Of a stretch of 48,769 nucleotides of DNA, positions 20,172-48,769 are shown in pieces (position 1 is the stretch's first letter; each line of letters opens with the position of its first letter). The notes under the pieces are model-generated. The model made no database searches. It was not told the origin of the DNA and was given only the letters and a program-made list of their open reading frames with translations. Where the stretch lies: the UHGV virus genome UHGV-0110022. The stretch is one strand, 5' to 3'. The stretch comes from a virus. A program made the translations under genes and the position numbers.

Positions 20172-20178
20172 TCATTCA

Positions 20179-20421: not shown

Positions 20422-20423
20422 GT

Positions 20424-22192: not shown

Positions 22193-22200
22193 GAATCTTC

Positions 22201-24207: not shown

Positions 24208-24476
24208 TGAAAGAGCTTGAGTTAAAGAAACCGATTACCGCTCATGGCGAGACACTCTCCGTACTGGAGTTTGATGAGCCCACCGGGAAAGATGTCCGCG
24301 AGCTGGGGTATCCCTACCAGATGAATCAGGATGAGTCCGTCAGACTTCTGGCGCATGTGGTATCGAAATATATTGTGCGGCTGGCGAAAGTGCCGCAAAG
24401 CTCTGTCGACCAGATGTCTCCGGCAGACCTGAATGCAGCGGCGTGGCTTGTGGCTGGTTTTTTCCTCCAGGCCTGA
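24207..24476 (+). CDS. tail assembly chaperone (short form)
   Basis: Small acidic protein directly upstream of tape measure; TAATG coupling. Confidence 0.65.
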   Translation: MKELELKKPITAHGETLSVLEFDEPTGKDVRELGYPYQMNQDESVRLLAHVVSKYIVRLAKVPQSSVDQMSPADLNAAAWLVAGFFLQA

Positions 24477-24625
24477 CGGCTGAATACCTTACTGATCGCT
24501 TCTTTGATTGCGCCAGCTACTGGCGCATTAATCCCTTCGAATTGCTGAATATGCCGATCAGTGAAATTCCCTTGCTGGTCAGTCAGGCAAACAGGATAGA
24601 GCAGGAGAAACGCACACATGGCTGA
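24207..24625 (+). CDS. tail assembly chaperone, long form via programmed -1 frameshift at T_TTT_TTC (24458-24464)
   Basis: Slippery heptamer in the 0 frame 12 nt before the stop; the -1 frame continues open to 24625, overlapping the tape-measure start. Confidence 0.5.
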
Positions 24626-26450
24626 ATTTGAGCTTAAGGCGTTGATCACCGGTGTCGACAGGCTTTCTCCCGCGCTGTCGAAAATGCAAAAGAAAATCCG
24701 GGGATTTAAACGCCAGGCGGAAGAAGCGTCACAGGGTGGGCTGGCGCTTGGTGGCGGACTGGCAGCGGGTCTGACGCTTTCCCTGAAATCTTATGCCGAT
24801 CAGGAAAACGCCGCCACCGGGCTGAAAGTCGCCATGATGGATGCGAATGGCGAGGTTGGAAAGAGCTTTCAGGACATCAATAAACTGGCTATTGGCCTGG
24901 GTAACCAGCTACCCGGTACAACGGCTGATTTCCAGAACATGATGCAGATGCTGGTGCGTCAGGGGATCCCGGCAGAAAACATTCTTGGCGGTGTGGGTAA
25001 AGCGACAGCTTATCTTGCGGTACAACTGAAAAAAACACCGGAAGCGGCTGCTGAGTTTGCTGCAAAGATGCAGGATGCTACCGGAACGGCGTCAGAAGAC
25101 ATGATGGGGCTGTTCGACACTATCCAGAAGGCGTTTTATCTGGGCGTTGACGATACCAACATGTTGTCCTTCTTCACTAAAACCAGTTCTGTTCTGAAGA
25201 TGGTGAACAAGGACGGTCTTCAGGCTGCACAGAGCCTTGCCCCCATCAGCGTCATGATGGATCAGATGGGGATGAACGGGGAGTCGGCAGGTAATGCCCT
25301 GCGAAAAGTTATCCAGTCCGGATTAAGCGTTAAGAAAATCAGGGACGTCAATAAAATCATGGCCCGCCAGAAACTCGGGGTACAGCTCGATTTTACTGAC
25401 GGCAAAGGAAGTTTTGGCGGTCTTGATAACATGTTCAGGCAACTGGCAAAGCTGCGAAAACTGACCGACGTTAAGCGAACAGGTGTACTTAAGGCAATAT
25501 TTGGTGATGATGCCGAAACCCTTCAGGTGGTTAATGCACTAATCGATAAAGGAAAGGATGGCTACGATCAGATCCAGCAGAAGATGAATAAACAGGCCAG
25601 CCTGAATAAACGTGTTCAGGCCCAGCTTGGTACGCTGTCCAACCTGTGGGAGGCAATGACGGGGACCGCAACTAACGGCCTTGCGGCTATTGGCGGCGCA
25701 TTTTCTGGTGACGCCAAAAATATCACGCAATGGCTGGGGGAGTTGGGGGAGAAATTCACGAAGTTTGCGGATGAAAATCCCCGGGTTATTCGCGGCGTCG
25801 TCGGGCTTGCTGCCGGTCTTGCGATTCTGAAACTGGGATTGATGGGCGTGGGCAGTGCCATCAGTATCGTCAGCAGGATCATGTCGATGACGCCGATTGG
25901 CATGATTGCGACGGCGATTGCCCTGGCTGCGGGATTAATTATCACTAACTGGGATGTTGTCGGACCTTATTTTAAGAAACTCTGGGAAACCATTAGTCCT
26001 TATTTTGAGGCTGGCTGGGAACTTCTGAAGAAGGTTTTTGCCTGGTCGCCGCTGGGGATGGTGATCAATAACTGGGGACCGGTTGTTAAGTGGTTTCAGG
26101 ATATGTGGGATAAGCTGAAGCCGATTATTGAATGGTTTACCGACAGTTCCGGTGACACGGTCGATGCCATTAACTCGGCGCAGTGGGGCGCGGGTGCTTA
26201 TGATGCTTATGGGACGGGAATACCGGCACGGGGATACACTCCTTATCCGGCGGTGGATCCGGCTCAGGCAAACAACGCCTCCGATGCCACAGGCTCGAAT
26301 CCCTTCATGATTAATAAAGCTACCGCGCCAAAAGTTGATGGTGAGATCAAGGTATCATTTATAAATATGCCACCAGATATGCGGGTTACGGAAACACGCT
26401 CCAGTGGCATTGATATAAATCACGATGTTGGCTATACCCGATTTTGGTAG
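24618..26450 (+). CDS. tail tape measure protein
   Basis: 610 aa, helical N-terminal region, Gly/hydrophobic central segment; AGGAG RBS. Confidence 0.85.
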   Translation: MAEFELKALITGVDRLSPALSKMQKKIRGFKRQAEEASQGGLALGGGLAAGLTLSLKSYADQENAATGLKVAMMDANGEVGKSFQDINKLAIGLGNQLPGTTADFQNMMQMLVRQGIPAENILGGVGKATAYLAVQLKKTPEAAAEFAAKMQDATGTASEDMMGLFDTIQKAFYLGVDDTNMLSFFTKTSSVLKMVNKDGLQAAQSLAPISVMMDQMGMNGESAGNALRKVIQSGLSVKKIRDVNKIMARQKLGVQLDFTDGKGSFGGLDNMFRQLAKLRKLTDVKRTGVLKAIFGDDAETLQVVNALIDKGKDGYDQIQQKMNKQASLNKRVQAQLGTLSNLWEAMTGTATNGLAAIGGAFSGDAKNITQWLGELGEKFTKFADENPRVIRGVVGLAAGLAILKLGLMGVGSAISIVSRIMSMTPIGMIATAIALAAGLIITNWDVVGPYFKKLWETISPYFEAGWELLKKVFAWSPLGMVINNWGPVVKWFQDMWDKLKPIIEWFTDSSGDTVDAINSAQWGAGAYDAYGTGIPARGYTPYPAVDPAQANNASDATGSNPFMINKATAPKVDGEIKVSFINMPPDMRVTETRSSGIDINHDVGYTRFW

Positions 26451-27133: not shown

Positions 27134-28462
27134 ATGACGTGGAAAGACAGGCTTCAGGATGCGTCATTTCGAGGTGTGCCGTTTAAGGTTGAAGAAGAAA
27201 GTGCGGGAACCGGTCGCCGTGTGGAAACACATGAATACCCGAACCGCGACAAGCCCTATACCGAAGATCTGGGAAAAGTCACTTTCCGCCCGTCCATCAC
27301 AGCTTATGTGGTGGGAGATGACTGCTTTGACCAGCGCGATCGCCTGATTGAAGCGCTGAATAAACCAGGTCCCGGCACGCTTGTCCACCCGACATATGGT
27401 GAGCTGAAAGTCTGTGTTGACGGGGAAGTTCGGGTCAGCACATCGAAAAGTGAAGGGCGTATTGTCCGCTTTGACCTGAAGTTTGTCGAAGCAGGAGAAC
27501 TCTCTTACCCCACATCAGGTGCGGCGACGGCGCAGACGCTGATGTCATCCTGTTCTGCACTGGATGACTGCATCAGTGACAGCTTCAGCGGTTTCAGTAT
27601 CGATGGTGTGGCGGATTTCGTGCAGAACGACGTTATCGGTAATGCCAGCATAATGCTGGGGTATGTTTCTGATGCGATGAAAGTGGTGGATTCTGCCGTA
27701 TCGGATGCCGCCAGGCTGTTGCAGGGGGATATCTCGGTACTTCTGCCGCCGCCATCGTCAGGCAAAAATTTCGTTGAGCAGGTGCAGAAAATGTGGCGTA
27801 CCGGGAAACGCCTTTATGGTAACGCCAGCGACCTGGTCACCATGATCAAAACGCTTTCTGGTGTCAGCCTCGGCAGCGATTTGCAACCGCGCGGCGTCTG
27901 GAAAACGGACAGTAAAACCACCGCCACAGCGACGCAGCAGCGTAACATGGTTGCCAGCACCCTTCGTACGACTGCAATCAGCGAAGCGGCGTATGCCGTT
28001 ACCCGATTGCCTGCGCCAACAACTTCTGCGGTGATGCAGAATGCCGCAGTGGGGCAGTCAACAACACCCGCGCAGAGCTCCGGCTGGCCTGCCGTCACGC
28101 ATCCGGTGCTGAACAATGCACCGGCGGTGAAAAACACGGTTGACCTGCCAACGTGGGAAGAACTGACCGACATTCGCGACACACTGAATACGGCAATTGA
28201 TAAGGAGTTGTCCCGTACAACTAGTGATGCGCTGTTTCTGGCTCTGCGCCGGGTGAAAGCAGATCTGAATGCGGATATCAACACGCGCCTTGAACAGTCT
28301 GCTCGGATCATTCAGCGCACGCCGGATGAGGTTTTACCCGCGCTGGTGCTGGCGGCGACCTGGTTTGATAACGCGGCGCGTGACGCGGACATTATCCGGC
28401 GTAATGCCATTACGCATCCCGGCTTTGTGCCGGTGATCCCTCTGAAGGTGCCAGTGCAATGA
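27134..28462 (+). CDS. DNA circulation protein (Mu gpN-like)
   Basis: N-terminal motif MTWKDRLQDASFRGVPFKVEEE; GGAG RBS. Confidence 0.8.
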   Translation: MTWKDRLQDASFRGVPFKVEEESAGTGRRVETHEYPNRDKPYTEDLGKVTFRPSITAYVVGDDCFDQRDRLIEALNKPGPGTLVHPTYGELKVCVDGEVRVSTSKSEGRIVRFDLKFVEAGELSYPTSGAATAQTLMSSCSALDDCISDSFSGFSIDGVADFVQNDVIGNASIMLGYVSDAMKVVDSAVSDAARLLQGDISVLLPPPSSGKNFVEQVQKMWRTGKRLYGNASDLVTMIKTLSGVSLGSDLQPRGVWKTDSKTTATATQQRNMVASTLRTTAISEAAYAVTRLPAPTTSAVMQNAAVGQSTTPAQSSGWPAVTHPVLNNAPAVKNTVDLPTWEELTDIRDTLNTAIDKELSRTTSDALFLALRRVKADLNADINTRLEQSARIIQRTPDEVLPALVLAATWFDNAARDADIIRRNAITHPGFVPVIPLKVPVQ

Positions 28463-32134: not shown

Positions 32135-32884
32135 ATGCATCGCATAGACACGAAAACCGCGCAGAAGGATAAGTTCGGCGCGGGTAAGAACGGTTTTACC
32201 CGTGGTAACCCCCAGACCGGCACGCCTGCCACCGATCTGGATGATGACTACTTTGACATGTTGCAGGAAGAGCTTTGCAGCGTGGTGGAGGCATCCGGTG
32301 CCAGTCTGGAGAAGGGGCGGCACGACCAGTTGCTTACCGCGCTTCGTGCGCTGCTGTTAAGCCGCAAGAATCCGTTTGGCGATATCAAATCGGATGGCTC
32401 AGTGAAAACGGCTCTCGAAAACCTTGGTTTGGGAGAAGGCTCTGCATTACCTGTTGGTGTGCCTGTTCCATGGCCTTCAGCCACACCGCCAACAGGCTGG
32501 CTGAAATGCAACGGTGCGGCATTTTCTGCTGAAGAATACCCGGAACTGGCAAAGGCTTACCCGACAAATAAATTGCCTGATTTACGTGGTGAGTTCATTC
32601 GTGGCTGGGATGACGGAAGAGGAATAGATACTAACCGTAGCTTGCTTTCATCACAGGGCGATGCCATTCGAAATATAATTGGTGCATTAGTGGATGTCAG
32701 GTTTAATAACTACCCTTCTGATTCTGGCGTTTTTACAACCAGCGTCATCGGAGATGCTTCATCTGATTCAATTAAAGGTGGTTATGCAAAGCGAGTAACA
32801 TTCGATGCTTCCAGAGTTGTTCCAACTGCAAACGAAAACCGACCTCGTAACATTTCCTTTAATTATATCGTGAGGGCTGCCTGA
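32135..32884 (+). CDS. tail fibre protein (constant N-terminus plus currently expressed variable C-terminus)
   Basis: Conserved tail-fibre N-terminus ([40 protein letters not shown]); contains inversion crossover site at 32412-32437. Confidence 0.8.
32412..32437. repeat. Pin recombination site (left inverted repeat, gix/hix-like)
   Basis: CTCGAAAACCTTGGTTTGGGAGAA; inverted match to 34237-34262 (shared TTGGTTTGGGAGAAG). Confidence 0.65.
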
Positions 32885-33891: not shown

Positions 33892-34262
33892 TTAATACCC
33901 CACTGCCATCCAGTAAATTGAATTTGTTGTAGCAGAAGTGTAAGTAAATCTGATTTTAGTTCTGTTGGTACTTCCAATATCAAAGCCCACAGAACGGGCA
34001 GAAGGATCATTAGTTGAAATAAGAGCGTTTACCGAACGACAAGCAGCAGGGAAAGCTACAGGTAATGTTATATCAACTGTTCCAACACTTCCTCCGGTTG
34101 GTGAGACAGAAAAACTCCCCCATTGAATAATCATCCCCCCAGGTAATTTCTGGTATCCATTGGCGGTCAATGAGTTACCAAAGTTGTTCATATCCGGTAC
34201 CTGATTTTCTCCTGTCCCCACATTCCGTTTTGCCGCTTCTCCCAAACCAACGTTTATGAAAA
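33892..34262 (-). CDS. promoterless alternative tail-fibre C-terminal segment
   Basis: Open frame runs through the right recombination site (..INVGLGEAAK..) matching ..[10 protein letters not shown].. at the left site, so inversion would fuse it to the constant N-terminus. Confidence 0.55.
34237..34262. repeat. Pin recombination site (right inverted repeat)
   Basis: TTCTCCCAAACCAACGTTTATGAAAA; internal dyad symmetry typical of Hin/Gin-family sites. Confidence 0.65.
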
Positions 34263-34316
34263 TGCAGAAATAACGAGCAAATGGCATCATTCCTGCTTTT
34301 GTCAGAGGGATCCACT

Positions 34317-34871
34317 ATGCTTATTGGCTATGTACGCGTATCAACAAATGACCAGAACACCGATCTACAACGTAATGCGTTGAACTGTGCAGGATGCGAG
34401 CTGATTTTTGAAGACAAGATAAGCGGCACAAAGTCCGAAAGACCAGGATTGAAAAAACTGCTAAGGACATTATCGGCAGGTGACACACTGGTTGTCTGGA
34501 AGCTGGATCGGCTGGGGCGTAGTATGCGGCATCTGGTCATTCTGGTTGAGGAGTTGCGCGAACGTGGCGTTAATTTTCGCAGCCTGACGGATGCTATTGA
34601 TACCAGCACACCGATGGGGCGTTTTTTCTTTCATGTGATGGGTGCCCTGGCTGAAATGGAACGAGAACTGATTGTTGAACGAACAAAAGCTGGACTGGAA
34701 GCTGCTCGCGCACAGGGACGAATTGGGGGACGTCGTCCCAAACTTACACCAGAACAATGGGCGCAGGCCGGACGATTAATTGCAGCAGGAATTCCTCGCC
34801 AGAAGGTGGCGATCATCTATGATGTTGGTGTATCGACACTGTATAAGAAGTTTCCGGTCGGAGATAAATGA
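34317..34871 (+). CDS. pin: serine DNA invertase (Pin/Gin/Hin family)
   Basis: N-terminal MLIGYVRVSTNDQNTDLQ with catalytic Ser, C-terminal HTH; 184 aa. Confidence 0.85.
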   Translation: MLIGYVRVSTNDQNTDLQRNALNCAGCELIFEDKISGTKSERPGLKKLLRTLSAGDTLVVWKLDRLGRSMRHLVILVEELRERGVNFRSLTDAIDTSTPMGRFFFHVMGALAEMERELIVERTKAGLEAARAQGRIGGRRPKLTPEQWAQAGRLIAAGIPRQKVAIIYDVGVSTLYKKFPVGDK

Positions 34872-35197
34872 AACCGCAGGCTCGTCGTATGCAAGAAAGT
34901 GCTGCGGCTGGCTGGCCAGCTTCTGATAGTGCGAATATTGAATGATTTCTATCTGTTATAGATTTTACCGTATTTCGGCATGAATGAAACTGAATATCCT
35001 CCCACCGATTCTTCATGACTTTACGCCACTGTCTCTAGGGCTGCTATGTGCCAAAAGCAGACTGACTAACTCAATAGTGGGTCAGTCAAAATGAGGGATA
35101 CGTCGACTCCTGTTACTGTTATCAATTATATTGTAGAATCAGAAAGCAGGCGTCAAAGACCTTAAATATTATTCGATACCTTAGGGATGTAAGTGAT

Positions 35198-35680
35198 ATG
35201 CTCGACAATATGAATGAATATGAGGAATTCTTGTTCCATAGGATTGATGATTCGGATTTATTGACAGGATTTGTTATTGGCCATTTAGTGATTGAACATC
35301 TTCTTGAAGAGATAATTCTAGGCTATGACATCAAGCTCAGAAAACATTTTCTTACATTGAGTCATAGTAAAAAAATAAACTTCATAAATTCTTTGGAACT
35401 AATACCTGATAACGTAGCAAGTTGTTTGCAAAGTATTAACAAAATAAGAAATAAATTTGCTCATCAATTAGGTTACAAGCCGAATAAAGGTGATTTATTG
35501 AACCTAATTGAGCAATGTATAGATAGTTTTAACGATATGACCGACGGACTTGAACAACTTCATGGTGCTCTAAAACAATGTGATGATCTACTTGAAACAC
35601 AAGAAAAAGACGGAGTTGGGCTAGCTGATCTCTTTATACAAGTGGTCTACGATCTAGAGGGGTACGCCAAAAAATATTGA
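35198..35680 (+). CDS. HEPN-motif protein (160 aa), candidate abortive-infection/RNase-type cargo
   Basis: R-x4-H motif in IRNKFAHQ; AT-rich; lies between invertase and att fragment. Confidence 0.45.
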   Translation: MLDNMNEYEEFLFHRIDDSDLLTGFVIGHLVIEHLLEEIILGYDIKLRKHFLTLSHSKKINFINSLELIPDNVASCLQSINKIRNKFAHQLGYKPNKGDLLNLIEQCIDSFNDMTDGLEQLHGALKQCDDLLETQEKDGVGLADLFIQVVYDLEGYAKKY

Positions 35681-35893
35681 GTCATTATTCTTGGGGTAGC
35701 CCTCCAATTCGGTGACGCATATTTTTGTTAGTTATTGGTATTAACAGGTAACTGCCGCTTCTCGCTCATAGCGAAACTTAAACCTAGTAAACTCGTCAGC
35801 TCCGTGCCAGGATCGGAAGTTGCAAAGTTTCGGCATTTTATGCCAGTGAGTTCCTAATTTCTAATCAACCTCTTCATTATAGGAGTTAGTAAA

Positions 35894-36103
35894 TTGAAAA
35901 TCGATTGGCATAGCTCATTACTGACCAGTAACAATAGCATGGATAAAAACTATAAAAATACACAAAACGTTCGTCTTTTCATGATTAAGGAATGTGGTGA
36001 AGATTTTCGATTCGATCGTGAATTTATGATGTGGATACGTAATGATGATCCGAAAACTTTGGGTGATGTTATCAATGAGTGGAAACGCAGACATTCGTTT
36101 TAA
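35894..36103 (+). CDS. hypothetical protein (69 aa, TTG start)
   Basis: AGGAG RBS 8 nt before TTG; AT-rich. Confidence 0.35.
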   Translation: MKIDWHSSLLTSNNSMDKNYKNTQNVRLFMIKECGEDFRFDREFMMWIRNDDPKTLGDVINEWKRRHSF

Positions 36104-36382
36104 TAAGCCAAGCCCGCTTTTCGCTCATAACAGACATTCACTACAGTTATGGTAGAAGGTATGCATGCTGGGTGGGGAAAGTATGAAGGAAAAGAAGACT
36201 GCTGCGCCGTTTGTCGTCACATTTATCTTCATTGGCTATGCAAGTCGTAATACAAGGTGGGACAAAACTGAGACACATAAGGCCTCGCAATGACTTGCAA
36301 GGCTTTACATGTTTTGATGTGGTGGGACGTGTGAGCGCAGTGTTGATGGGGTAATGCTTTGAATTAGAAGCGGATTCTTATA

Positions 36383-36428
36383 ATTCGTAATGCGAAGGTC
36401 GTAGGTTCGACTCCTATTATCGGCACCA
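36383..36428 (+). tRNA. thrW: tRNA-Thr 3' fragment (anticodon loop to CCA end); prophage att core / attR-like
   Basis: ATTCGTAATGCGAAGGTCGTAGGTTCGACTCCTATTATCGGCACCA matches the 3' part of tRNA-Thr(CGU) as recalled; 5' acceptor strand GCCGATA absent upstream. Confidence 0.65.
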
Positions 36429-37008
36429 TCAACAGAAAATCCCGTAAAAACAGCATTCTTTAGCATGTTTATCTAACGGTTTGTAACTTCTGTTCTAACG
36501 TCTGTTAGCACTGGTAAACGCCTTTGCGTTGTATCGGCTCAAGTATTGTACAACGTACTGGCGGGTAGTTACCAGGCTCAAGCCCGAACAGCATTAGAAA
36601 TTATGCCATCCCTTGAAGCTAAAAGAGTTGCCGGACTCTCTAAACACATCACTTGAACCCTTAGCGATACGTTCCGCGCTTCGTGCGGCGCTCAATGATG
36701 CTACACGTCGAGATGACGTTGCAGAAAATAAACAGGCGTAATGTTGGGAAGACTAACCGGATCGGGAAAGAATCCGGCTCTGCCACGGTTTCGATCACCG
36801 GAGTATAACGATCACCTGATAAGAGAACGTGCTAAGGCTTTATCCTCCCTGCGAAGGGATTACACCCTGCGGAAGCGCTACGCGCCGCCTTTTCTTATGT
36901 GCCCAACACGGCACGTAATGGTCATCCATTATCTGCACCATTGTAACTTTCGTTGTACTGCCTCTCTGATGTACGTTGAGCGCTGGCAGATTCAGCGGAG
37001 GGGATATC

Positions 37009-37167
37009 ATGTCAAAAGCTAACCAAAAAGCAGCCACGAAGCGCAACAACCGTAAGATTCACGCCCGTAAATTCCTGGCAACACCAGAGGGGAAAGCCTG
37101 GCTTGCTAAGAAGCAGGAAGAGCGAGAGGAAATCAAGTTGGCGCGAGCTGCAAACTTGATGTTTTGA
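37009..37167 (+). CDS. small basic protein (52 aa)
   Basis: GGAGGGG RBS 5 nt before ATG. Confidence 0.4.
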   Translation: MSKANQKAATKRNNRKIHARKFLATPEGKAWLAKKQEEREEIKLARAANLMF

Positions 37168-37178
37168 GATGGGGCTAA

Positions 37179-37979
37179 TCAGCCCCTATTGCCCCTATGC
37201 TTTTTTTCGAATCTTGTCACAACTCTATCCAACCATTTGGGTTCTTCTCTAAGATCTGAGTAGTAACAATTTTCTGGAACCGCGTTCCAGAAAGCAGTTA
37301 TTGCGTTAGCAAAATCTACAAATTGATCTTCTGAGACATGTAAATCGTCATGGTTAGGGACAATCTGCGTGCCTCTAACATCGGTGGGGTTTGGGTAATA
37401 CTCAGGATGATCAACTGATAGTGTTTGATGTGCAGGGCCGTCTCCATGCTTGTATACGTTTACCACCAAGTTACAGGCTTTTATCCTTTCTCCGTATTCG
37501 GTTCCATTGATTGTGAGGCCAATCCATTCGAGCAAATCAATTAGCTGATGGAAAGTTAAATTCCAGATCATGGGGGTAATCAATTCTCTTTCACACCAAT
37601 TACTTAGCTCTTTGATAGTATGTTCTCTTAGTTTTTTATCAAACTGATGATACATACCTGCTGTCAACGCCAACAATACGGTATTTTGCATCTCCAGAAG
37701 CGACCATACATAATAAATTCCCTCATGATAGGCTTGCTCGTAGGCCGCCATTGGGTCATCGTTATCTTGATCAAAATACTCAGCAGTAGTCTCCAAAAAC
37801 TGTTGTTCTCTCTTCTCTGCTTCTTGTTCTAAATCACCAAACTGAGAGAGAAGCCGCCGCCTTGCCTCAGAAACGTAAAATTCATGGGGTTCAAGAAAGT
37901 ATGGAAGATCGGCTCTGGCTAACCAGAAGGTGACAAAATTTTCAGTAGACATACATTTCCTCAATGAAGCGATAGACAT
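37179..37979 (-). CDS. hypothetical protein (266 aa)
   Basis: Long ORF; no recognisable motif; start uncertain. Confidence 0.45.
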   Translation of the reverse strand: MSIASLRKCMSTENFVTFWLARADLPYFLEPHEFYVSEARRRLLSQFGDLEQEAEKREQQFLETTAEYFDQDNDDPMAAYEQAYHEGIYYVWSLLEMQNTVLLALTAGMYHQFDKKLREHTIKELSNWCERELITPMIWNLTFHQLIDLLEWIGLTINGTEYGERIKACNLVVNVYKHGDGPAHQTLSVDHPEYYPNPTDVRGTQIVPNHDDLHVSEDQFVDFANAITAFWNAVPENCYYSDLREEPKWLDRVVTRFEKKHRGNRG

Positions 37980-38115
37980 TTTGAGGTTATGTTATCTTCG
38001 GTGAGGGTTAAAATCCTCAACTGATTCAATGGAATTGTCATTTGGTTTGAAATGCGGTAAAAGAATAAAATTCGTAATGTACGCTTTGCAGAAACAATCT
38101 GAAAATGAGGTGGTT

Positions 38116-38343
38116 ATGAGTGAACGTTACGAATTTTTACCCAATTGCTTCCTGAAAGTCTCTATCTCATCGGGTTACTTTACTGCCATCCTTGATGGTT
38201 CGCTTCCTCCTGATACCCCTGGTTCTGTTCATGCTGATAATGCCACGCAAGTCATAATCGTACTCGATTCCTACTTCCAATTGACTGACTTACAGCATCA
38301 AGGAATTGCTAATTATCTTTGCTCTCAAGGGATGGAACTTTGA
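38116..38343 (+). CDS. hypothetical protein (75 aa)
   Basis: GAGG RBS before ATG 38116. Confidence 0.3.
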   Translation: MSERYEFLPNCFLKVSISSGYFTAILDGSLPPDTPGSVHADNATQVIIVLDSYFQLTDLQHQGIANYLCSQGMEL

Positions 38344-38798
38344 TAGATTGGTTGCTTAATGTTGATAATCTGACCATGCTTGCCGCATGGGCTGGGTTTG
38401 CACTATCCATTTTCCAGCTATTAAAATCCAGAACAGATCTACGCCTTTTCTTAGGTTGCGATCAGTATGAAGACAGAATTTATGTTTCCAACAAAAGCGC
38501 CCATGATGTGACGATAAGTTCGGCGGGCATAGTAACCGCCAGCGGACGCCTTAGCGATTGTTCTAACGAACATTGTGATGAATACATGATCAGCCCCATG
38601 TTGCCACGCCGATTAAAAGCCCGTGATGAAATGATCTTAGAAGTACCATTCATCAATAAGGCTCACCATAATAAGGTGCATCATCGCGGAGGGGTGTATG
38701 TTACTACATCTGATGGGAAGCTGTTCAGTGATGTTAGTTGGCTGCGTCGTCGCTGGTGGTGGATATTGTCTCTGATCCTACGTGATTCCAAGCAGTGA
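38319..38798 (+). CDS. hypothetical protein, possibly membrane (start uncertain)
   Basis: ORF with hydrophobic N-terminal segment; no clear RBS. Confidence 0.3.
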   Translation: MLSRDGTLIDWLLNVDNLTMLAAWAGFALSIFQLLKSRTDLRLFLGCDQYEDRIYVSNKSAHDVTISSAGIVTASGRLSDCSNEHCDEYMISPMLPRRLKARDEMILEVPFINKAHHNKVHHRGGVYVTTSDGKLFSDVSWLRRRWWWILSLILRDSKQ

Positions 38799-38856
38799 TT
38801 ACTTATACACCGCACCAGACCACGCTGGTTATCTGCTTGTCTTCCTTCTTCAATCG

Positions 38857-39054
38857 TTACTCCTCTTCAAAGGTCATTGTGTAGCGGCATTGCTGCGACG
38901 GCCTGAGCGTCACTGTCTCCGTAAAGTTGGCGTTGGAATAAACGCAAATCTTCGCGTTGTCTGTCTCCTGTTCGTCACTGAGAATCAGGGTTATCTGTCC
39001 GGCATTCGCCAGGACTGGCATTACTGTCAGCGTCAGCACAAGCAAGCGTTTCAT
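38857..39054 (-). CDS. small secreted protein (65 aa with signal peptide)
   Basis: AGGAG RBS 7 nt before ATG; signal peptide MKRLLVLTLTVMPVLANA; directly downstream of the recombinase. Confidence 0.45.
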   Translation of the reverse strand: MKRLLVLTLTVMPVLANAGQITLILSDEQETDNAKICVYSNANFTETVTLRPSQQCRYTMTFEEE

Positions 39055-39064
39055 GCGTATCTCC

Positions 39065-39697
39065 TTATAAGTCCATCTCATTGATCACACGGCTAACGGC
39101 TTGCTTGTCTAAATCCAGATAGCGCCTGGTGTCAGTGATGTTGCTGTGATTAAGCACGGTCATAGCTAAAGCGATGTTGTTTGCTGAACGCTTGTAGATG
39201 GCATTCCCGCCAGCTTTGCGGAAGCTGTGAGCTGATACAGTGCCATGAATACCGATAGCTTTAGCGGCCTCTGCGATCTGCTTGCTCACTTCTTCGCGTC
39301 GTACAGGCGCTTGCTTGTTCATTGATCGGTTACGCTGGCTTCTGAACACATGCACATCATGCGGATACTCAGCACGGCGACGAGCAATCATCTGCACCAC
39401 TGGAGCAGGGAGAGTGAGGGCTTTACGCTTCCCTGTCTTCTGTTCTTCTATGTCAATCTCACCGTTGATCACTTCGTCGAAGCGTAACGCTACGGCATCC
39501 CCCACACGCAGTACAGCGGCTTGCATCATTAACGTAACGTCAGCTATCAGGCTCTTGTTATGAGCGTTTAGCCACTCCCTGATCGCTTTGGCTTGCTGTT
39601 CGTCTAACACTACTGCTCTGTTCAATTTACCCTCCCATAAAGACACACATCTAAACTCAACGAAACAAATAATATGATCAATTTCAGTAAGTTGCAA
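39065..39697 (-). CDS. small tyrosine recombinase (catalytic domain only, FimB/FimE-size)
   Basis: Catalytic residues in LRVGDAVALRFDEV (Arg), HSFRKAGG (His-x-x-Arg), TDTRRYL (Tyr); possible TTG start at 39625 after GGGAGGG RBS, giving 186 aa. Confidence 0.55.
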   Translation of the reverse strand: MQLTEIDHIICFVEFRCVSLWEGKLNRAVVLDEQQAKAIREWLNAHNKSLIADVTLMMQAAVLRVGDAVALRFDEVINGEIDIEEQKTGKRKALTLPAPVVQMIARRRAEYPHDVHVFRSQRNRSMNKQAPVRREEVSKQIAEAAKAIGIHGTVSAHSFRKAGGNAIYKRSANNIALAMTVLNHSNITDTRRYLDLDKQAVSRVINEMDL

Positions 39698-40384
39698 TAT
39701 AAATGATCAAAAATCGAACTGTCTTGTGTGTGGTAAATGGCGCGATTGCGTCCAGTGCTTAACGACCTCCAGGGCCGCCTCCAGATCGAAAATTTCTTCT
39801 CCTCTAAATATCTTGAACAAAATCATGATGTTGGCATTTATAAACATGTGTTTGAACATTGCCAAATCCTCAACTCTGCACGAAGAACAGCGGCAACAGC
39901 GGAACATCACACTACCAATGCTTGTGTGTGGTTATTGTCTATCTCATTGATTTAAATCTGATAAATGTAAGGTTGTTAGGCGAGGGCGGGGCTAACCTGC
40001 CTGTATGCACAGATTATGCGGAGTTTATGCACTTGAAACTGAGTGTGTAATGAAATGATTAGAATGCTAATCAATTGGTGGATTTTGGCATGAAAAAGAA
40101 ACATCGTTTCATTTTAGAAAACTCGTTCAGCACATTGCACCTGTCATGAAACTCCTCATTGTGGACAATGATCGCTGTGAGCCGCATGGCGCAAGGCTTT
40201 ACGCAAAGTGAGTGATGGTTACTATCTTGCTGACTATGGCAACTTTACCCATGTAACAACGGCAATCTTTACCTGTCATTTAAGATAGGCTTAGCTATGA
40301 TTATCGTGTTGTTTTGATAGGAATAACCTCTCGTTACTCTTAGTGTTGTTGCATGGATGAATCAGAGTTAGTTGGGGGCGTTAT

Positions 40385-40464
40385 ACATCAAAATGATGTA
40401 TAGATGCATGGGATACGCATCAAATTGATGTATGGATCGGCAAACTACACATCAAATTGATGTT
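40385..40464. repeat. three phased palindromic repeats (putative regulator binding sites)
   Basis: CATCAAA(A/T)TGATG at 40386, 40418, 40450 with exact 32-bp spacing. Confidence 0.5.
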
Positions 40465-41014
40465 CTATACAAAGAGATTCTAAAAGCGATCTCTAAAAGA
40501 GAGCTTTTAGAAGATCTTGTTAAAGATTCGCTTTGCTGGCGCGTATCGCCTGGCAAGTGACCTGATTCGCCTTTGGGGGCTACTCGGTCAGCCGCTCACG
40601 ACGCAGCGTAGCGCATCTGTCTGTGATTGTGCCAGGGCTTCGCCCTCGTGAAACGAGGCACAGAAGCTATGCGCCGTGTGCGCAATGTCTTTCAGGATAA
40701 CTTCTGCCTGTCTTCCATGCTCCGCATTCATCCATGCAAAGTTAGCCCACGGCTAAGGATTCACTGGTCGCTGATGGCTCCAGTTCATCCAGCCTCAATC
40801 CAATACCATCACCTACTATCCTGATAACTAACGTTATCCCTCAGTAGTTGTGCTATTGGTTTCGGGAGTAAGTGCCAGAGGGCGGCGGTAACGCAAACGG
40901 AACGCCCCAGACGCGCTGAGAGCGAATTTGAGAGGATAGGGAGGGGATTGCAACTCTCAGGCTTTCAAACCTGTTAGAAAGCGATAGACCGCGTTTTATG
41001 ATGACATGAATGAG

Positions 41015-41094
41015 TTGATCACAACGTGGAAATGCGCTATAATTTGAAAGGGATTGAAATAAGTGTTGACATTTAAATCATTTCATGTTAAAGT
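41015..41094 (+). promoter_or_regulatory. tandem sigma70-like promoters
   Basis: TTGATC-17 nt-TATAAT (41015-41043) and TTGACA-17 nt-TAAAGT (41066-41094). Confidence 0.45.
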
Positions 41095-41189
41095 AAATGA
41101 TGTAGGGTGATGAAAGCATTCATCCCGTCCTCATCTCAGGCATCCAGCCTAACGCAAACAATCCAACTTACACCGCACTATCAGGCAAC

Positions 41190-41438
41190 GTGATTAACGT
41201 TCTCCCTGGATGGTGTTTCTGTGTTTCTAACGCAAGGAGAACCAAAATTAAGTATTTTAATCCAGAACTTGTCTTCGAGGCTTTAAAGGCCGGAAGCCAG
41301 ACGCGAAATGCAATAAACAGCCAGCGAGCAGCCGCACAACGGCAAGGATATTTCGAACACGCTGAAAGATTGCGTAAAGGAATCGAACTTTACGATCAAT
41401 GGAAAGCTGAACAGGCTGAAACCACCACCAACGAATAA
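41190..41438 (+). CDS. hypothetical protein (start uncertain)
   Basis: ORF with internal AAGGAG at 41233 but no in-frame ATG after it. Confidence 0.3.
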   Translation: MINVLPGWCFCVSNARRTKIKYFNPELVFEALKAGSQTRNAINSQRAAAQRQGYFEHAERLRKGIELYDQWKAEQAETTTNE

Positions 41439-41456
41439 ACCAGAAGGAGAAACCAA

Positions 41457-41633
41457 ATGAGCGAAATCCAGAAGAAGAAACCAGCCGGAACATTCGTAAA
41501 ACTGCCGGATGAAGTGTTTAGTACTTTGTTCAAAGAGGCGCGAGCGAGAGGCGTAACAGTGCAGGAGATGTTAATTGACGCTGCAACCACACTTTCCACA
41601 TCAATTAAGAACGGAGAACGTTCTACCAAATAA
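41457..41633 (+). CDS. small DNA-binding-like protein (58 aa, possible ribbon-helix-helix), not in the ORF track
   Basis: AGAAGGAG RBS 7 nt before ATG; translation MSEIQKKKPAGTFVKLPDEVFSTLFKEARARGVTVQEMLIDAATTL... Confidence 0.4.
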   Translation: MSEIQKKKPAGTFVKLPDEVFSTLFKEARARGVTVQEMLIDAATTLSTSIKNGERSTK

Positions 41634-41647
41634 GGATACACCCTAAC

Positions 41648-42388
41648 ATGACTGACATTATAAACAGTAAGGCTTTTAGTTTCACCAACACCGAAGACGC
41701 ATTTAACGAATGCACCAGGATCACCAATCTTAAAACAGGCGTAACAGAGTCCCTGTCTCCTGCTGATAAGCAGTTTTACGTCAGAATGCGCCATCGTTAT
41801 TATCGCTTTGCGATAGAGTTGGGCGGTACTTATTACGATGACATTGATCAACTTGGTGCAAGTATTGGTGTCAGCTCGGCTACGGCAACACGTATTGTTG
41901 CAAAGTTGAAGAAAATCGGACTGATCGCCAGTAATAAGCCAAAGCGCTCTAACCAATGGACTATAACGCCACTCACGCCGCAAAACTTCACCTTTGAACG
42001 TGATCGTAATGCGATGGAACGTGATTCCGCGCCGGAATGGGTAGATTGTCTGAAACATCCCGTGTTTGGCAAAGCTAAAGAAGACGTAGCGCCAGAGGAA
42101 GAAAAACAGCAGTCAGTGCCAGAAGAGGCCAAAGCAGATCCGAAGCCGGAGAAGCCAAAGAAAATGCCTACGAAGAAACCCGCCTCCATTCCAGCTAAAG
42201 ATATTAAGATAGAGCCAGTTAATTTAAACTTTCTTGAGGGTTATCGGGATGAATGGGAGAATCCTGAAAAGAATCTACCAGTTTCACAACATCCGAAAAT
42301 CAGATGGCTACTTATTAACGGATACCTGGACACAGAGAAGAATCCAAAACTTAAACCAATCTACGAGGAAATAGAACATTTATGCTGA
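41648..42388 (+). CDS. HTH-containing protein (246 aa), possible replication/regulatory protein
   Basis: Winged-helix-like segment IGVSSATATRIVAKLKKIGLI; Lys/Pro/Glu-rich linker. Confidence 0.45.
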   Translation: MTDIINSKAFSFTNTEDAFNECTRITNLKTGVTESLSPADKQFYVRMRHRYYRFAIELGGTYYDDIDQLGASIGVSSATATRIVAKLKKIGLIASNKPKRSNQWTITPLTPQNFTFERDRNAMERDSAPEWVDCLKHPVFGKAKEDVAPEEEKQQSVPEEAKADPKPEKPKKMPTKKPASIPAKDIKIEPVNLNFLEGYRDEWENPEKNLPVSQHPKIRWLLINGYLDTEKNPKLKPIYEEIEHLC

Positions 42389-42843
42389 AAACGGTTATAC
42401 CCAAACAATACAACGAACGTGATCTTAACATCATCCATCTTGCCAGTTTATTAAATCCAGAAGTTGAAAGAGGTGTTGCATTCGAACAAGCGCAAGAACT
42501 TGTAGATGTTTACGCTGAGCGAGGTGAATCAAGTTACGCTAATGCTCTTGTTACGCTATTCAATGCAGCGATGAAGCCACCGAAAGAGATAGAATGTAAA
42601 ATGACATCCCCACATCTTCACGATAAGAATCTGTCTCCTTCGGAACGTCTGGTATTAATGCACCTCGAATCACTGCCATCATTAACAAATGTGAAACAGG
42701 AGTCAATAGCGATAGTGTTGGGGATAAGTGTGGCAACTGTATCCAGTGCGATTCGCAAGCTCCGCCGCAATGATTATCTAACTACTACGTTAATCAAACC
42801 TGGTCGCGGTAAAGGATGCGACATTACACTTACGACTAAATAA
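42382..42843 (+). CDS. winged-helix transcriptional regulator-like protein (153 aa)
   Basis: HTH-like segment IAIVLGISVATVSSAIRKLRRNDYL. Confidence 0.4.
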   Translation: MLKTVIPKQYNERDLNIIHLASLLNPEVERGVAFEQAQELVDVYAERGESSYANALVTLFNAAMKPPKEIECKMTSPHLHDKNLSPSERLVLMHLESLPSLTNVKQESIAIVLGISVATVSSAIRKLRRNDYLTTTLIKPGRGKGCDITLTTK

Positions 42844-42947
42844 CAACAATCGGGAAACTTTTATGATTACTGCTTTATGGTGGTTCACCATATTCTATGG
42901 CGTTTACGTTATAACCAGACAAGGAGTTTCCCCTCTACGAGGAATGA

Positions 42948-43331
42948 ATGGGACGAAAAGAACGAAGTAACCTTGTTAGAATCGAAAAAGCCACACGCAT
43001 CAGCAAACGTAAATACACCTCTTCTCTACAAGACCTCGCACGAGAGTCTATTCCTGGTGAGATGGTGACAACTATTAAAGAATATCCCGCAGTAGTACCA
43101 AATGGATTAGAGTTTGAACTATTGCAGGATGTTCTATCGTCAACGGATAACGTTTATTACAAACCACGACGCAGACGCGAATATATTATAGATAGTAGCC
43201 ATCTCAAGAAATGGCAAATAGCAGGATTTGAACATTACGCCGATTATATTGGGTATTGTCAAACCTGGGGGCTATCCCAGCACACACAAGAGTTTGATAT
43301 TCTCTTTGACGACAAGGAAAACAATGAATAA
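42948..43331 (+). CDS. hypothetical protein (start uncertain)
   Basis: ORF only. Confidence 0.25.
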   Translation: MGRKERSNLVRIEKATRISKRKYTSSLQDLARESIPGEMVTTIKEYPAVVPNGLEFELLQDVLSSTDNVYYKPRRRREYIIDSSHLKKWQIAGFEHYADYIGYCQTWGLSQHTQEFDILFDDKENNE

Positions 43332-43662
43332 TAAAACTATGGACACAGTGAACACCCTAATTAACTCTTTCCACGACAACTGGCATTTACCAACCTTACA
43401 GCTTGTTAATGCAGCGTGGCGTGAGAGAACGCCCTCCGCGCTTCTGGAAGCGGTGCAATACACTGAACAGGCAATCACTGCCCTTGAACATCTGCAAACG
43501 TCTGTAGCTCGTTTGGTGCAGCGTGACGGCAGTTCGATCACACCAGAAGAAGCGTGGCGTGTAGCTAATGACCTTGAGGAGCTTGCTTGCTCTCTGCAAT
43601 ACATCACCGTTGAACTCGGAGAGCTTTCCATCCAGATCGCGGAAGAATGCGCCATAACATAA
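43324..43662 (+). CDS. hypothetical protein (112 aa)
   Basis: AAGGAAA RBS before ATG 43324. Confidence 0.35.
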   Translation: MNNKTMDTVNTLINSFHDNWHLPTLQLVNAAWRERTPSALLEAVQYTEQAITALEHLQTSVARLVQRDGSSITPEEAWRVANDLEELACSLQYITVELGELSIQIAEECAIT

Positions 43663-43677
43663 AAGTTACTAAATGTC

Positions 43678-43706
43678 TTGACATTATGTGCTATATGTGT
43701 CATAAT
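43678..43706 (+). promoter_or_regulatory. near-consensus sigma70 promoter
   Basis: TTGACA(43678-43683)-17 nt-CATAAT(43701-43706). Confidence 0.55.
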
Positions 43707-44236
43707 GAGTTATAGGGTAAGTATTCGAATCACTTCACCCTCGTATGTCAATACGCACTCCTTGAGAATGCCGTTCCCATAGCGGCATTCTCTCCCTCTG
43801 AATGCTATTTCTGAAAGTGTTGGTTCTTTGTCTTGTTTGTTCCGAAGGAATGCGCGGGATGTAATATCTCGTTGTGTTGGTATTGCATCGCAATCACCGC
43901 GCATCTCCGACTTTTTCAGAAAGGGCATTCGCTCTTTGCTCATTCATTCCGTTAGGATGAATGTAGTCAGACTGAATAAACGCCGTCAGCGGTAGTTACG
44001 TTCAGGCTGGCAATCTCTTATTACTATTCCAGTGGTGATATTGAGATTCCATTCCCACTTCTCGCCATGACAGAAGGGCTTCTGTTTTGAAGTGGGAGCA
44101 ATGACGGGCGATCCTACTTCTGTTATTCGTAACAGTTGCGCCCTTCATTTTTTCAAGAAGCCATTCTTTAACATCATAATCCTCCGAAACGAAAATGATT
44201 TTAACAGAATGCTTTCTAACAAGGGCATATTCTCCA

Positions 44237-44258
44237 GGGGCTTAATCGCCCCTTTTTA
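44237..44258 (+). terminator. rho-independent terminator at the end of a structured leader
   Basis: GGGGC-ttaatc-GCCCC followed by TTTTT. Confidence 0.55.
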
Positions 44259-44328
44259 ACAATCTGCATGTAACACTTCCGTTATTAATGGAAGGATAAA
44301 CGCAGTTATAACGCGAAGGAACAACACA

Positions 44329-44544
44329 ATGTTCTTAATAAACAATCGCGACCGAATCCTAAAATACAAATCCGAAGTGATTCAAGTTAATCCTGAGTTA
44401 ATAGCTAAAGTGGCTGAAATGGCAGGATGTACCGTTGAAGAAATAGAAAAAGCTGTAGACCAGTATTTCCCTTCTGAGGACACACCTCAACTTAGTATGC
44501 AGGAACGGATCGCAATCAAATCCAAGGAAATCAAACAACAATGA
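44329..44544 (+). CDS. hypothetical protein (71 aa)
   Basis: AAGGAA RBS; first gene of the capsid-like cluster. Confidence 0.4.
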   Translation: MFLINNRDRILKYKSEVIQVNPELIAKVAEMAGCTVEEIEKAVDQYFPSEDTPQLSMQERIAIKSKEIKQQ

Positions 44545-44900
44545 TTGTAGACCTAACCGAACTTTTCCCAATTCGTAAGAGTTTCACTGACGTATTGAGC
44601 TACGCCACTGATTCTTTTGCAGTCGTAGAAGGCCGTGTTTTCGACCTGCCAGCAGATATTGAATGCGGCGATGTTATCGGCGCTGATGGCGCTCTATACA
44701 CCTCCGGCGATGATGCCTTTGTGGTGGTAAGTGATTTCGTGAGTGCTGGCGACGGTAAAACCGTGAATGTCCTACGTGCGCCTAATGTTGGTAGCTTCGT
44801 AGCACTGAAAGCCGACAACCTGCACGCAGCTAATCACGCCGCAGCTATCACCACGCTCGAATCCAAAGGGTTCGTATGCCGTCCATTCTTCACCTCTTAA
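44541..44900 (+). CDS. head decoration protein-like (D-like, putative)
   Basis: 119-aa Gly/Ala/Val-rich protein immediately upstream of an E-like capsid gene; ATGA overlap. Confidence 0.4.
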   Translation: MIVDLTELFPIRKSFTDVLSYATDSFAVVEGRVFDLPADIECGDVIGADGALYTSGDDAFVVVSDFVSAGDGKTVNVLRAPNVGSFVALKADNLHAANHAAAITTLESKGFVCRPFFTS

Positions 44901-44916
44901 TCAAGGAAGATAAATA

Positions 44917-45948
44917 ATGAGTAAAATCGCAATTGGGCGTGAGATGGTCGATTTAGCGCCAATCTTCCAGGCTCTGCCGGAACGTAACTATCTTATGAAT
45001 GCCCTCGACCTATTCGACGGGGTAGGTGTTCAGAATCCGAAAGTGGTGGTGACACAGCTTCTGGATGATAACTACAGCCTGTTTAACACCCCGCAGAGCC
45101 GTTATTCATCAAACCACGACACTACCGCGCGTCAGAATGGCAAAGAATACCTTATCGAGATTCCTTGGTTTGCAAGGGAAGATGAGTTTAAACCTGTAGA
45201 CGTACAAGGCCGCAGAGTGCAGGGAACGGACTACGAGCAAACCGTTACCGACCTGTACACCGAATACACTGGCAAACATAAGATTGCTTATCTGCGTACC
45301 CGTGAGTCTTACCTGGCCCGTGCTCTGTTCAAAGGTGAAGTTTATACGCCTGCAACTGATGACCTACTGATCTCTTATGCTGAACTGTTCGGTGTGGTGC
45401 CAATGACAGCCAGCGTGAGCACAGCGACAGCGGCACAGGATTTTGATGCGATCTTAGACAAAGTTCAGGCTGCCGCAGGTGGATTGGCTGGACAGATTGA
45501 ACGAGTGATCGTATTCGCTAAACCTGCTGCATTTAGCCAGATTCGCTTCTCTGACAGTATGTCTAAGGCGTTCCAGTATGTAGCGCCATATGACGACCGT
45601 AACCTATTCTACCAGCGTCACGAGCTTCTCCCTGGTGTTAGTACGTTTAGCCTACCTGGTGCGCCTATCGACATTGTTAAAGTGACAGATCCGCTGATCC
45701 TTGCACAGATGCCAGATGATGCTGACATGGTGGCGGTTCCGGTGTTCAGTAAAGGCACAAATGCTTATCAGAACATCTACGGCGCTGCCTCTGGTAACTT
45801 TGCGCTGATCGATGCTGCACCTGCTGAATACTACTCTTGGGGCTACCTGAGCGAGCGCGGCGATGCTTACCACGTTATGCACGAAAACAGCGCATTACCA
45901 GTGAACCATGCGTTAGGTATGCAGGTGAAGATCACCATCACTGCTTAA
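44917..45948 (+). CDS. major capsid protein, E-like family (putative)
   Basis: 343 aa, lambda gpE-like size and composition; follows decoration-like gene. Confidence 0.5.
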   Translation: MSKIAIGREMVDLAPIFQALPERNYLMNALDLFDGVGVQNPKVVVTQLLDDNYSLFNTPQSRYSSNHDTTARQNGKEYLIEIPWFAREDEFKPVDVQGRRVQGTDYEQTVTDLYTEYTGKHKIAYLRTRESYLARALFKGEVYTPATDDLLISYAELFGVVPMTASVSTATAAQDFDAILDKVQAAAGGLAGQIERVIVFAKPAAFSQIRFSDSMSKAFQYVAPYDDRNLFYQRHELLPGVSTFSLPGAPIDIVKVTDPLILAQMPDDADMVAVPVFSKGTNAYQNIYGAASGNFALIDAAPAEYYSWGYLSERGDAYHVMHENSALPVNHALGMQVKITITA

Positions 45949-46067
45949 TGAGCAAGCGGGAGCCTGACCCGCTGGAAATAATCAGGCTATTGAATATGGC
46001 GTGTGAACGTTGGGAACATCTCCCCAGTGTTCCCGCCCTTTTTTATTTCCAGAATGAGGAAAGATAA

Positions 46068-46265
46068 ATGCAAGTGATTGTAAAAAGCGCGGGGCTTCAC
46101 CTCGCCGTAAATGCTGAAACAGCAGAAGAGTTATTAAATCTGGCGGGAGTGTGTCGTGTGCTTGAAATAGATCACGGTCATCTACGTCAGTTATTACATC
46201 GTGGGCGTAGTGTATCAGATGCACTTAATTATCTGGTGAGTAAAAAAGGCGGTGGCGATGCTTGA
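46068..46265 (+). CDS. hypothetical protein (65 aa)
   Basis: GAGGAAA RBS. Confidence 0.35.
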   Translation: MQVIVKSAGLHLAVNAETAEELLNLAGVCRVLEIDHGHLRQLLHRGRSVSDALNYLVSKKGGGDA

Positions 46266-48102: not shown

Positions 48103-48253
48103 TTGTGATGTAAATCACATGGGAATACCACATATTGCGCTCGCTTTGTAAAGGATGTGTATATGTGGTGTTTTTCTTTGACGCCGCTTCGTTTGTCCCT
48201 TACCCTTAAAAGGGTAAGCAGTTCACTCTTTATCTCCAAGATGAGGTGTTTTT

Positions 48254-48382: not shown

Positions 48383-48440
48383 AAATATCTCAAAGTGCCC
48401 ATAGCGGCGCTTATTCATTTGAATGTCTGGAGAGAATTAA

Positions 48441-48719: not shown

Positions 48720-48769
48720 GTTATCGGGGGATGGATAATCCCCCCTTAATTACTGGACGTTGTAATTTA

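Follow-up and report, generated by a model that had tools for sequence, protein, structure and literature searches.

Two accessory-gene cassettes bounded by conserved 23-nt palindromic sites between pin and thrW in an SfII-like prophage, and the recurrence of these sites in other phages, plasmids and chromosomes

The window analyzed in this work is the whole 48,769-nt stretch of the virus genome UHGV-0110022, which carries a prophage of the SfI/SfII/SfIV-like myovirus kind (structural genes 96-98% identical across 24 kb). Between the pin-type invertase gene of this prophage and the tRNA-Thr gene fragment at its end (thrW attR) lies a cargo slot, in which a preliminary description of the DNA had pointed out two direct 19-bp repeats, each following one of two cargo open reading frames (ORFs), which could mark either a duplicated 3' untranslated region (UTR) or the junctions of a small inserted cassette. 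According to our analysis, the slot holds two independent accessory-gene cassettes, each bounded by two oppositely oriented 23-nt palindromic sites (dyads), designated L and R; an R site, a spacer and the following L site constitute a junction (J). The elements of the slot are listed below; three-digit numbers with the prefix L, such as L179, denote loci used for comparison.

34281..34871, + strand: gene of a pin-type serine DNA invertase (Pfam Resolvase, 1e-51, and HTH_7; pinE in homologous E. coli loci), the left border of the slot
34871..35061, + strand: conserved left module of about 190 bp (75-98% identity in L001-L003, L382 and many viral loci)
34997-35061: junction J0, the last 65 nt of the left module, consisting of a degenerate R' copy (34997-35019), a spacer and a good L dyad
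35039..35061, - strand: L dyad of cassette 1, inner-to-outer TCTGCTTTTGGCACATAGCAGCC; homology to L179 and L180 begins at 35048, position 14 of the site
35062..35753, + strand: interior of cassette 1 with ORF 35198-35680 (160 aa), HEPN-like, with an RNKFAH motif
35754..35776, + strand: R dyad of cassette 1, GCCGCTTCTCGCTCATAGCGAAA, which holds the first 19-mer of the preliminary description and opens junction J1; three differences from the family consensus
35777..35794, no strand: J1 spacer of 18 nt; R and L start 47 nt apart, as in L004, L012, L014 and L020
35795..35817, - strand: L dyad of cassette 2, inner-to-outer TCCGATCCTGGCACGGAGCTGAC, which closes J1; homology to the lone cassette of L181 begins at 35795
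35818..36112, + strand: interior of cassette 2 with ORF 35894-36103 (69 aa), a DUF6434 protein (Pfam, 1.7e-28)
36113..36135, + strand: R dyad of cassette 2, CCCGCTTTTCGCTCATAACAGAC, which holds the second 19-mer and opens junction J2 and the conserved right flank
36136..36178, no strand: J2 spacer and a degenerate L' copy (36160-36178, TATGcaTGCTGGGTGGGGA, as read from the sequence)
36179..36429, + strand: right flank resembling an attP arm, ending in the 3' fragment of the tRNA-Thr gene thrW (attR, about 36383-36429)

The two 19-mers, GCCGCTTCTCGCTCATAGC at 35754-35772 and CCCGCTTTTCGCTCATAAC at 36113-36131, are present as had been described and are identical at 16 of 19 positions. A search across the window with a degenerate pattern (up to three mismatches allowed) returned these two copies only; the chance expectation of the pattern was 0.07, and none of 100 shuffles gave two or more matches. 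The repeat search lengthened the pair to 37 nt at 73% identity (35734-35770 and 36093-36129), most of the extension being probably due to chance, since the family as a whole conserves merely about 4 nt upstream of the site. The location of the repeats just after a stop codon applies well to the second copy, which begins 10 nt past the stop of ORF 35894-36103, but only loosely to the first, situated 74 nt past ORF 35198-35680. The original inventory of repeats was incomplete, two inverted partners at 35039-35061 and 35795-35817 having been overlooked; the direct 19-mers are real, but the functional unit is larger, being composed of inverted L/R pairs and a 64-bp R-spacer-L junction.

Read outward from the cassette, the 23-nt R site is TCCGCT-YY-TCGCTC-AY-AGCGGAC, while the L site lies in the opposite orientation and possesses the same arms around the core TGGCAC. 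Eighteen of the 23 positions are near-invariant across genera from Yersinia to Pantoea, and the inner flanks of the sites lean to AAC..GTT. The two L/R-specific core bases are tightly linked: CT (R type) was counted 132 times, GA (L type) 186 times and mixed combinations 6 times (Fisher p = 2e-83). In the window, the order is L-cassette 1-R, 18-nt spacer, L-cassette 2-R, and each of the four sites differs from the consensus at 3 of 23 positions. The junction element (R, spacer and L, 64 bp) has an R-to-L start spacing fixed at 47 nt both in the window and in unrelated loci; the end of the left module represents such a junction with a decayed R half (48 nt from R' to the L start in J0 vs 47 nt in the internal junctions), and the start of the right flank represents one with a decayed L half. 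Inspection of 80 junctions by eye suggested a resemblance of the spacer consensus CTTCAGCTCAGTTAGCT (e.g., L082, 3150-3167, and L155, 3644-3661) to a tRNA D-arm (TAGCTCAGTT).

In the consensus dyad, 7-8 bp pair as a stem (-6.8 to -9.2 kcal/mol, z -3.5 to -4.3), and folding of the 72-nt consensus junction gives a long, imperfect hairpin (-26.4 kcal/mol, z = -8.2). None of the three window junctions is more stable than its shuffles (z 0.1 to 1.1), as every site there deviates from the consensus at three positions. Likewise, the TCGCT-cat-AGCGA element noticed earlier in the first repeat (35762-35774) can pair, and does so in the minimum-energy fold, but the stretch is no stabler than its shuffles (z = 0.12). 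Throughout the family, 4-7 arm pairs are compensated vs 95-149 broken, and no covariation was found between variable positions of R and L, either within a junction or at the two ends of a cassette. As broken pairs dominate and the R and L positions do not covary, the conserved feature seems to be sequence recognition and not hairpin formation. These results bear directly on the proposal that the repeats are transcription elements carried by each cargo unit, i.e., a duplicated 3' UTR, a terminator, an insulator or an RNA-stabilizing hairpin. Both copies do lie downstream of a same-strand ORF, and the consensus dyad and junction do form stable hairpins; however, no terminator-like site was predicted at either window copy or after either ORF, the stems are not followed by a run of T, no Rfam family came close to its threshold in 34700-36600, and the L..R polarity is fixed whatever the orientation of the gene between the sites (58 forward to 41 reverse). 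Together with the lack of fold stability in the window copies and the prevalence of broken arm pairs, these data make a transcriptional role very improbable, and the idea of a duplicated 3' UTR found no support.

The other proposal of the preliminary description, namely that the repeats mark junctions of a small inserted cassette, proved right. Comparative alignment of the cargo slot revealed that the sites recur in related loci and that homology breaks within the outer dyads. Two viral contigs, L179 and L180, share window positions 35048-36135 at 99.4% identity and have nothing in common with the window outside them. The DUF6434 cassette (interior 35818-36112), bracketed by its L and R sites, was also found by itself: contig L181 carries it (35795-36127, 90% identity), with a lipase cassette and a well-formed junction before it and a different flank after it. 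In E. coli EC31 the same prophage slot is empty and retains one in-register hybrid junction, to which J0 contributed its left part and J2 its right part; its length falls 65 bp short of that of the two flanks put together. The stretch comprising the J2 spacer and L' is retained there and has a homologue in phage lambda (27346-27420). E. coli genomes and phage phi458 have conserved flanks around an entirely different cargo, and homology to E. coli, phi458 and lambda-type flanks resumes at 36114, where the second repeat starts. Hence, the window holds two independent cassettes between pin and the thrW attR. The junction in the middle is degenerate, and both cassettes now seem to move as one block.

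Exchange points were mapped more finely with cassettes at least 95% identical to each other in different contexts. In 6-7 of 8 R events and in roughly 6 of 12 informative L events, the dyad is divided so that its inner 14 nt stay with the cassette and positions 15-23 with the backbone; apart from two L events that break earlier (see below), the remaining ones gave no information. In L179 and L180, for instance, identity ends past position 14 of both terminal dyads (left, GCTGCTAT|GTGCC; right, TCGCTC|AT, at 36126). Rare inner-dyad variants move along with their cassette, while the outer positions 15-23 are characteristic of the backbone: AAAGCAGAC in the P2 flank, ATAACAGAC in the thrW/lambda flank and ATAAGGGAC in the recombinase unit described below. 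A transposition-based origin was also considered, according to which the cassettes are non-autonomous, MIC/MITE-like elements, have the L and R sites as their terminal inverted repeats and are mobilized by a transposase encoded elsewhere. It would agree with the inverted repeats of about 23-27 bp and of fixed polarity that bound each cassette, with the stop of homology at the outer edge of the dyad in several comparisons and with the many replicon types that carry the elements. Nevertheless, we regard it as improbable: no target-site duplication was seen beside the sites in P2-EC30 or L179, the best-resolved exchange point lies inside the dyad at positions 14/15 and not at its tip, each end is itself palindromic, neighboring cassettes are always separated by a spacer of about 17-18 nt, and no transposase family is enriched nearby.

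Pattern scans yielded viral loci (33 + 60 + 78), 84 loci in genomes of many Enterobacterales genera and over 120 loci in metagenomes. Among 382 loci, 317 distinct cassettes, with sizes from 0.2 to 7 kb, and 216 junctions were recognized. Cassette typing gave 268 cases of L..R, none of L..L and one of R..R; among homologous cassette pairs, 156 had the same orientation relative to L and R and none was inverted. The genes inside, with the above-mentioned ratio of 58:41, show no orientation bias, and the median upstream gap is 157 nt, for which reasons the cassettes look self-expressed. The cargo in phages includes defense genes (PD-T7-3, HEPN proteins), and that in chromosomes comprises LysR regulators, LysE exporters, SDRs, GNATs and one iron-uptake operon. 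The junction was detected in 2096 of 5426 complete E. coli genomes (about 39%), in up to 7 places per genome; Pantoea, Erwinia, Yersinia, Serratia, Klebsiella, Enterobacter, Citrobacter, Rahnella and Buttiauxella are among the genera with sites, which are also carried by P2-like phages, lambda and other phages. In phage lambda (L178, J02459), the same R site with a J2-like flank occupies 27323-27420, at the right edge of the non-essential b region and about 400 bp left of the attP core.

Among the loci fetched by the site pattern alone, a family of proteins of about 200 aa (the WP_001305361.1 family; 89-100% identity) recurs, and this tyrosine recombinase, here referred to as the candidate, is the sole recombination gene product enriched near the sites. 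It corresponds roughly to the catalytic domain of Phage_integrase alone (PF00589, 5e-19), Xer-like models matching far under their cut-offs; a sequence search of solved structures found no relative. In about 8 independent contexts (L037, 4342-4941; L114, L133, L080, L275, L294, L374 and L382 carry the gene), it begins 34 nt past an R-type site, whose outer arm is AAGGGAC, and ends 22 nt ahead of an L-type site, preceded by a hairpin with a 9-bp stem. The gene thus occupies the spacer of a junction; the neighboring cassettes vary by locus, and inter-locus homology starts and stops in the site cores. Of 5426 E. coli genomes, 928 carry it. A frameshifted copy was located in E. coli 18AR0366 (L382), between pin and attR of a prophage of the window's family and thus in the corresponding slot. 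E. coli Nissle and a Pantoea ananatis plasmid encode versions of the protein that are 100% identical; remoter homologues are found on many proteobacterial plasmids, the distant ones including those of Alteromonas (78%) and Phaeobacter (59%). On the Alteromonas macleodii plasmid pKD02 (L383, 8200-12000), the 78% homologue lies between a doc toxin gene and a Pycsar defense system and is followed by a similar hairpin and a diverged L-like site. These features suggest that related systems exist outside Enterobacterales, although no arrays could be delimited around the distant homologues.

Arrays of cassettes divided by an imperfect palindrome of about 64-72 nt, the AAC..GTT tendency of the inner flanks and an empty slot with a hybrid site could also call to mind integrons, with the junctions serving as attC sites for an IntI supplied by resident class 1-3 integrons. 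However, neither intI nor attI nor Pc was found in the window or in the loci, the candidate scores 15.9 bits against the cut-off of 265 of the integron-integrase model, the cassettes have their own upstream regions and lie in either orientation, the sequence of the sites is conserved and not their structure alone, and exchange takes place in the core of each half-site and not at G|TT. An integron origin is, accordingly, extremely improbable.

Several other factors were tried as the acting enzyme and rejected. The crossover site of the Din family (Pin/Gin/Hin) is 26 bp long, with AAACC-NN-GGTTT half-sites. Pin has its own crossover sites in the window, unrelated to the dyads: these lie at 32419-32438 and 34236-34255 (AAACCTTGGTTTGGGAGAAG and CTTCTCCCAAACCAACGTTT), form a 20-nt inverted repeat with 95% complementarity and bound an invertible segment with tail-fiber and tail-fiber-assembly genes, as is typical of crossover sites of an adjacent Pin invertase. 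The best ungapped match of the dyads to E. coli dif was 10-11 of 28 positions vs a shuffled mean of 10.3, which speaks against Xer/dif. P4-type integrases, found in about 10% of the loci, turned out to be island or phage integrases. A LEM-3-like GIY-YIG gene was met in 9 of the first approximately 180 loci, mostly outside cassettes, and was dismissed as a general factor. Directly past the pin stop codon of the window there is a hairpin (34875-34910, CCGCAGGCTCGT...AGTGCTGCGG), which is duplicated on either side of an inserted LEM-3-like GIY-YIG gene in L001 (3674-3710 and 4695-4731), L030 and L032; this duplication is a second, different kind of insertion point within the slot.

Considering these data, we lean, with due reserve, towards the interpretation that the dyads are tyrosine-recombinase core sites with distinct L and R cores, which bound exchangeable accessory cassettes. 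Each dyad would comprise inverted arms of 7-9 bp around a 6-bp exchange region (positions 9-14), and the symmetry of the arms suggests a single recombinase. Two fixed bases within this region set L apart from R, which would permit exchange of L with L and of R with R only; the presumed inability of L and R to recombine with each other would account for the absence of inversions and for the fixed polarity. Cassettes could in this way be excised, inserted or swapped between any two replicons bearing the sites, and would never be inverted; the inner 14 nt of the site would go with the cassette and the outer 9 nt would remain in the backbone. The catalytic-domain-only protein of about 200 aa is the candidate enzyme, and any activity in the window would have to be supplied in trans, because the window does not encode it.

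A number of observations weigh against this interpretation. The window copies may be inactive relics, as each differs from the consensus at three of 23 positions and lacks fold stability. The candidate gene is missing from the window and from about 83% of E. coli genomes, vs the presence of the junction in about 39%, and its tie to the sites is positional only. Since the loci were fetched by an exact L or R pattern, conservation of the fetching copy is inflated. Independent breakpoint events are few, several of them having one common partner, and two L events break ahead of position 7; moreover, since positions 9-14 never vary, mapping tends to assign to them any crossover that took place within the dyad. 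Finally, the inverted repeats annotated in P2 inserts (see below) extend about 90-110 bp past the dyads, and a simple core-site model leaves this extension unexplained.

A rival view holds that the dyads and junctions are passive shared patches, in line with the classical "linker" or "boundary" sequence concept of mosaic phages, exchange being performed by RecA, Red or RecET homologous recombination with no dedicated enzyme. In its favor, recent hotspot papers take homologous recombination as the default, the junctions are 64 bp long and fairly alike, some breakpoints fall at position 6/7 and others at the outer edge or at the far end of the junction, and most loci have no recombinase gene. 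On the other hand, what the different backbones (SfII-like slot, Z region of P2, lambda, chromosomal arrays) have in common is the 23-nt dyad alone, mismatches included, and this does not exceed the length needed by RecA; and the near-invariance of 18 of 23 positions across genera, the two discrete core classes with strict L..R polarity and the recombinase gene at fixed distances from R and L would all be left without explanation. Homologous recombination as the whole explanation therefore appears rather unlikely to us, although short-homology recombination may contribute. Extending the preferred core-site interpretation beyond the window, one might envisage, and we do so only tentatively, at somewhat short of even chances, a dedicated heterospecific cassette-exchange system, Enterobacterales-wide and perhaps wider, driven by the junction-encoded recombinase of about 200 aa. 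It would be parallel to integrons and mechanistically distinct from them, and would move self-expressed accessory and anti-phage genes among P2-like, lambda-like and SfII-like phages, islands, plasmids and chromosomes.

The cargo and the surroundings of the slot deserve a brief description. The GC content of the cassettes is 0.31-0.38 (0.31-0.35 in cassette 1) vs 0.45-0.54 in the flanks. The HEPN-like ORF 35198-35680 matches Pfam DUF4145 at 9.4e-5, just under the cut-off, other HEPN families matching weakly, and a promoter scan placed a promoter-like site ahead of it at 35103-35132. PADLOC gave no match for either cargo protein of the window. The cargo genes were not found in the complete E. 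coli genomes, where J1 alone matches, at 79%, in three genomes. In the closest cultured relatives, represented by Shigella phage SfII (L184, record 18000-24900), the same slot is occupied by oac, an IS4-family element and gtrABC; no dyads were found in it, and the right flank is reduced to the att-proximal 172 nt. In related loci this flank is 91-99% conserved. The attR fragment matches an annotated tRNA-Thr in E. coli and is present in a single copy in the window, which contains no intact tRNA gene. A 13-nt direct repeat connects 35103-35115 (TCGACTCCTGTTA) with 36407-36419 (TCGACTCCTATTA), the latter within the thrW fragment, and is possibly a matter of chance. To the right of attR, positions 36430-48769 did not match the usual E. 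coli thrW neighborhood in any of the 5426 genomes, and ORF 37179-37979 had no Pfam match; this DNA is probably another island arranged in tandem at thrW.

Comparison with known systems shows that elements of this kind have been recorded previously. The GenBank entry AJ512676.1 ("P2-EC30 proviral Z-region") contains the L site TCCGCCTCTGGCACAGAGCGGAC at 92-114, inside a "left inverted repeat" (3-115), and an R site at 1943-1965, inside a repeat_region (1942-2032); the junction query also matches AJ512679 and AJ512683 at the "left inverted repeat" feature. These three records belong to the 2004 study of Nilsson, Karlsson and Haggard-Ljungquist in Mol Biol Evol 21:1. A review (PMC8987985) summarizes the Nilsson 2004 work as dealing with inverted repeats that permit site-specific recombination, a mechanism reportedly inferred at that time. 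The inserts of the P2 Z/TO region have the same 23-nt core, with one L and one R around an AT-rich foreign gene (there the defense gene PD-T7-3), and both phages and bacteria carry the same inserts in their genomes, just as the window block and cassette 2 occur in other contexts. The slots differ: that of P2 lies between the tail-fiber gene G and the sheath gene FI, and that of the window extends from pin to the thrW attR of an SfII-like myovirus, where two tandem cassettes are joined by a complete 64-bp junction and the copies are degenerate. Hence, the kind of element has been known since 2004, albeit little studied, and the window represents a new phage slot and a two-cassette array. No description appears to exist so far of the enzyme, of arrays of junctions or of the logic of two cores; text searches of the literature for the exact sequences found no paper.

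Integrons have in common with the dyad system the arrays of single- or few-gene cassettes, imperfect palindromes of about 60-70 nt, sharing among replicons, and empty and hybrid sites, but they differ by IntI, attI and Pc, which are lacking here, whereas the cassettes described here possess their own upstream regions, a conserved site sequence and two exchange sites per junction. The pdif modules of Acinetobacter plasmids (XerC/XerD) are similar in the inversely oriented short sites, the occurrence in unrelated replicons and the module without a recombinase; yet the dyads are dissimilar to dif, and modules are separated here by two sites and a spacer instead of one shared pdif site. Cassette exchange with heterospecific lox or FRT sites offers the closest logic of common arms and incompatible spacers, by which a cassette can be swapped and is neither inverted nor lost via its own ends, although it is engineered, while the dyad system is natural, has inverted sites and an enzyme that is here a candidate. 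Phage morons (Juhala, Hendrix and colleagues) are likewise AT-rich, apparently self-contained units between conserved functions at a prophage end, but are defined by their own promoter and terminator and not by conserved flanking recombination sites.

With regard to the P2/P4 hotspots, studies of 2022 and 2026 call the mechanism that swaps defense systems with unrelated elements open and leave flanking repeats unmentioned. The sites presented here bracket such variable slots in P2-, lambda- and SfII-like phages, islands, plasmids and chromosomal arrays, and the system may explain the movement of defense and accessory genes among unrelated mobile elements. For the window itself, the prophage end has been parsed to base-level cassette boundaries and to the backbone parts left behind on exchange, and the in-site exchange points, along with a positional candidate recombinase, make the question of swapping in these hotspots directly testable.

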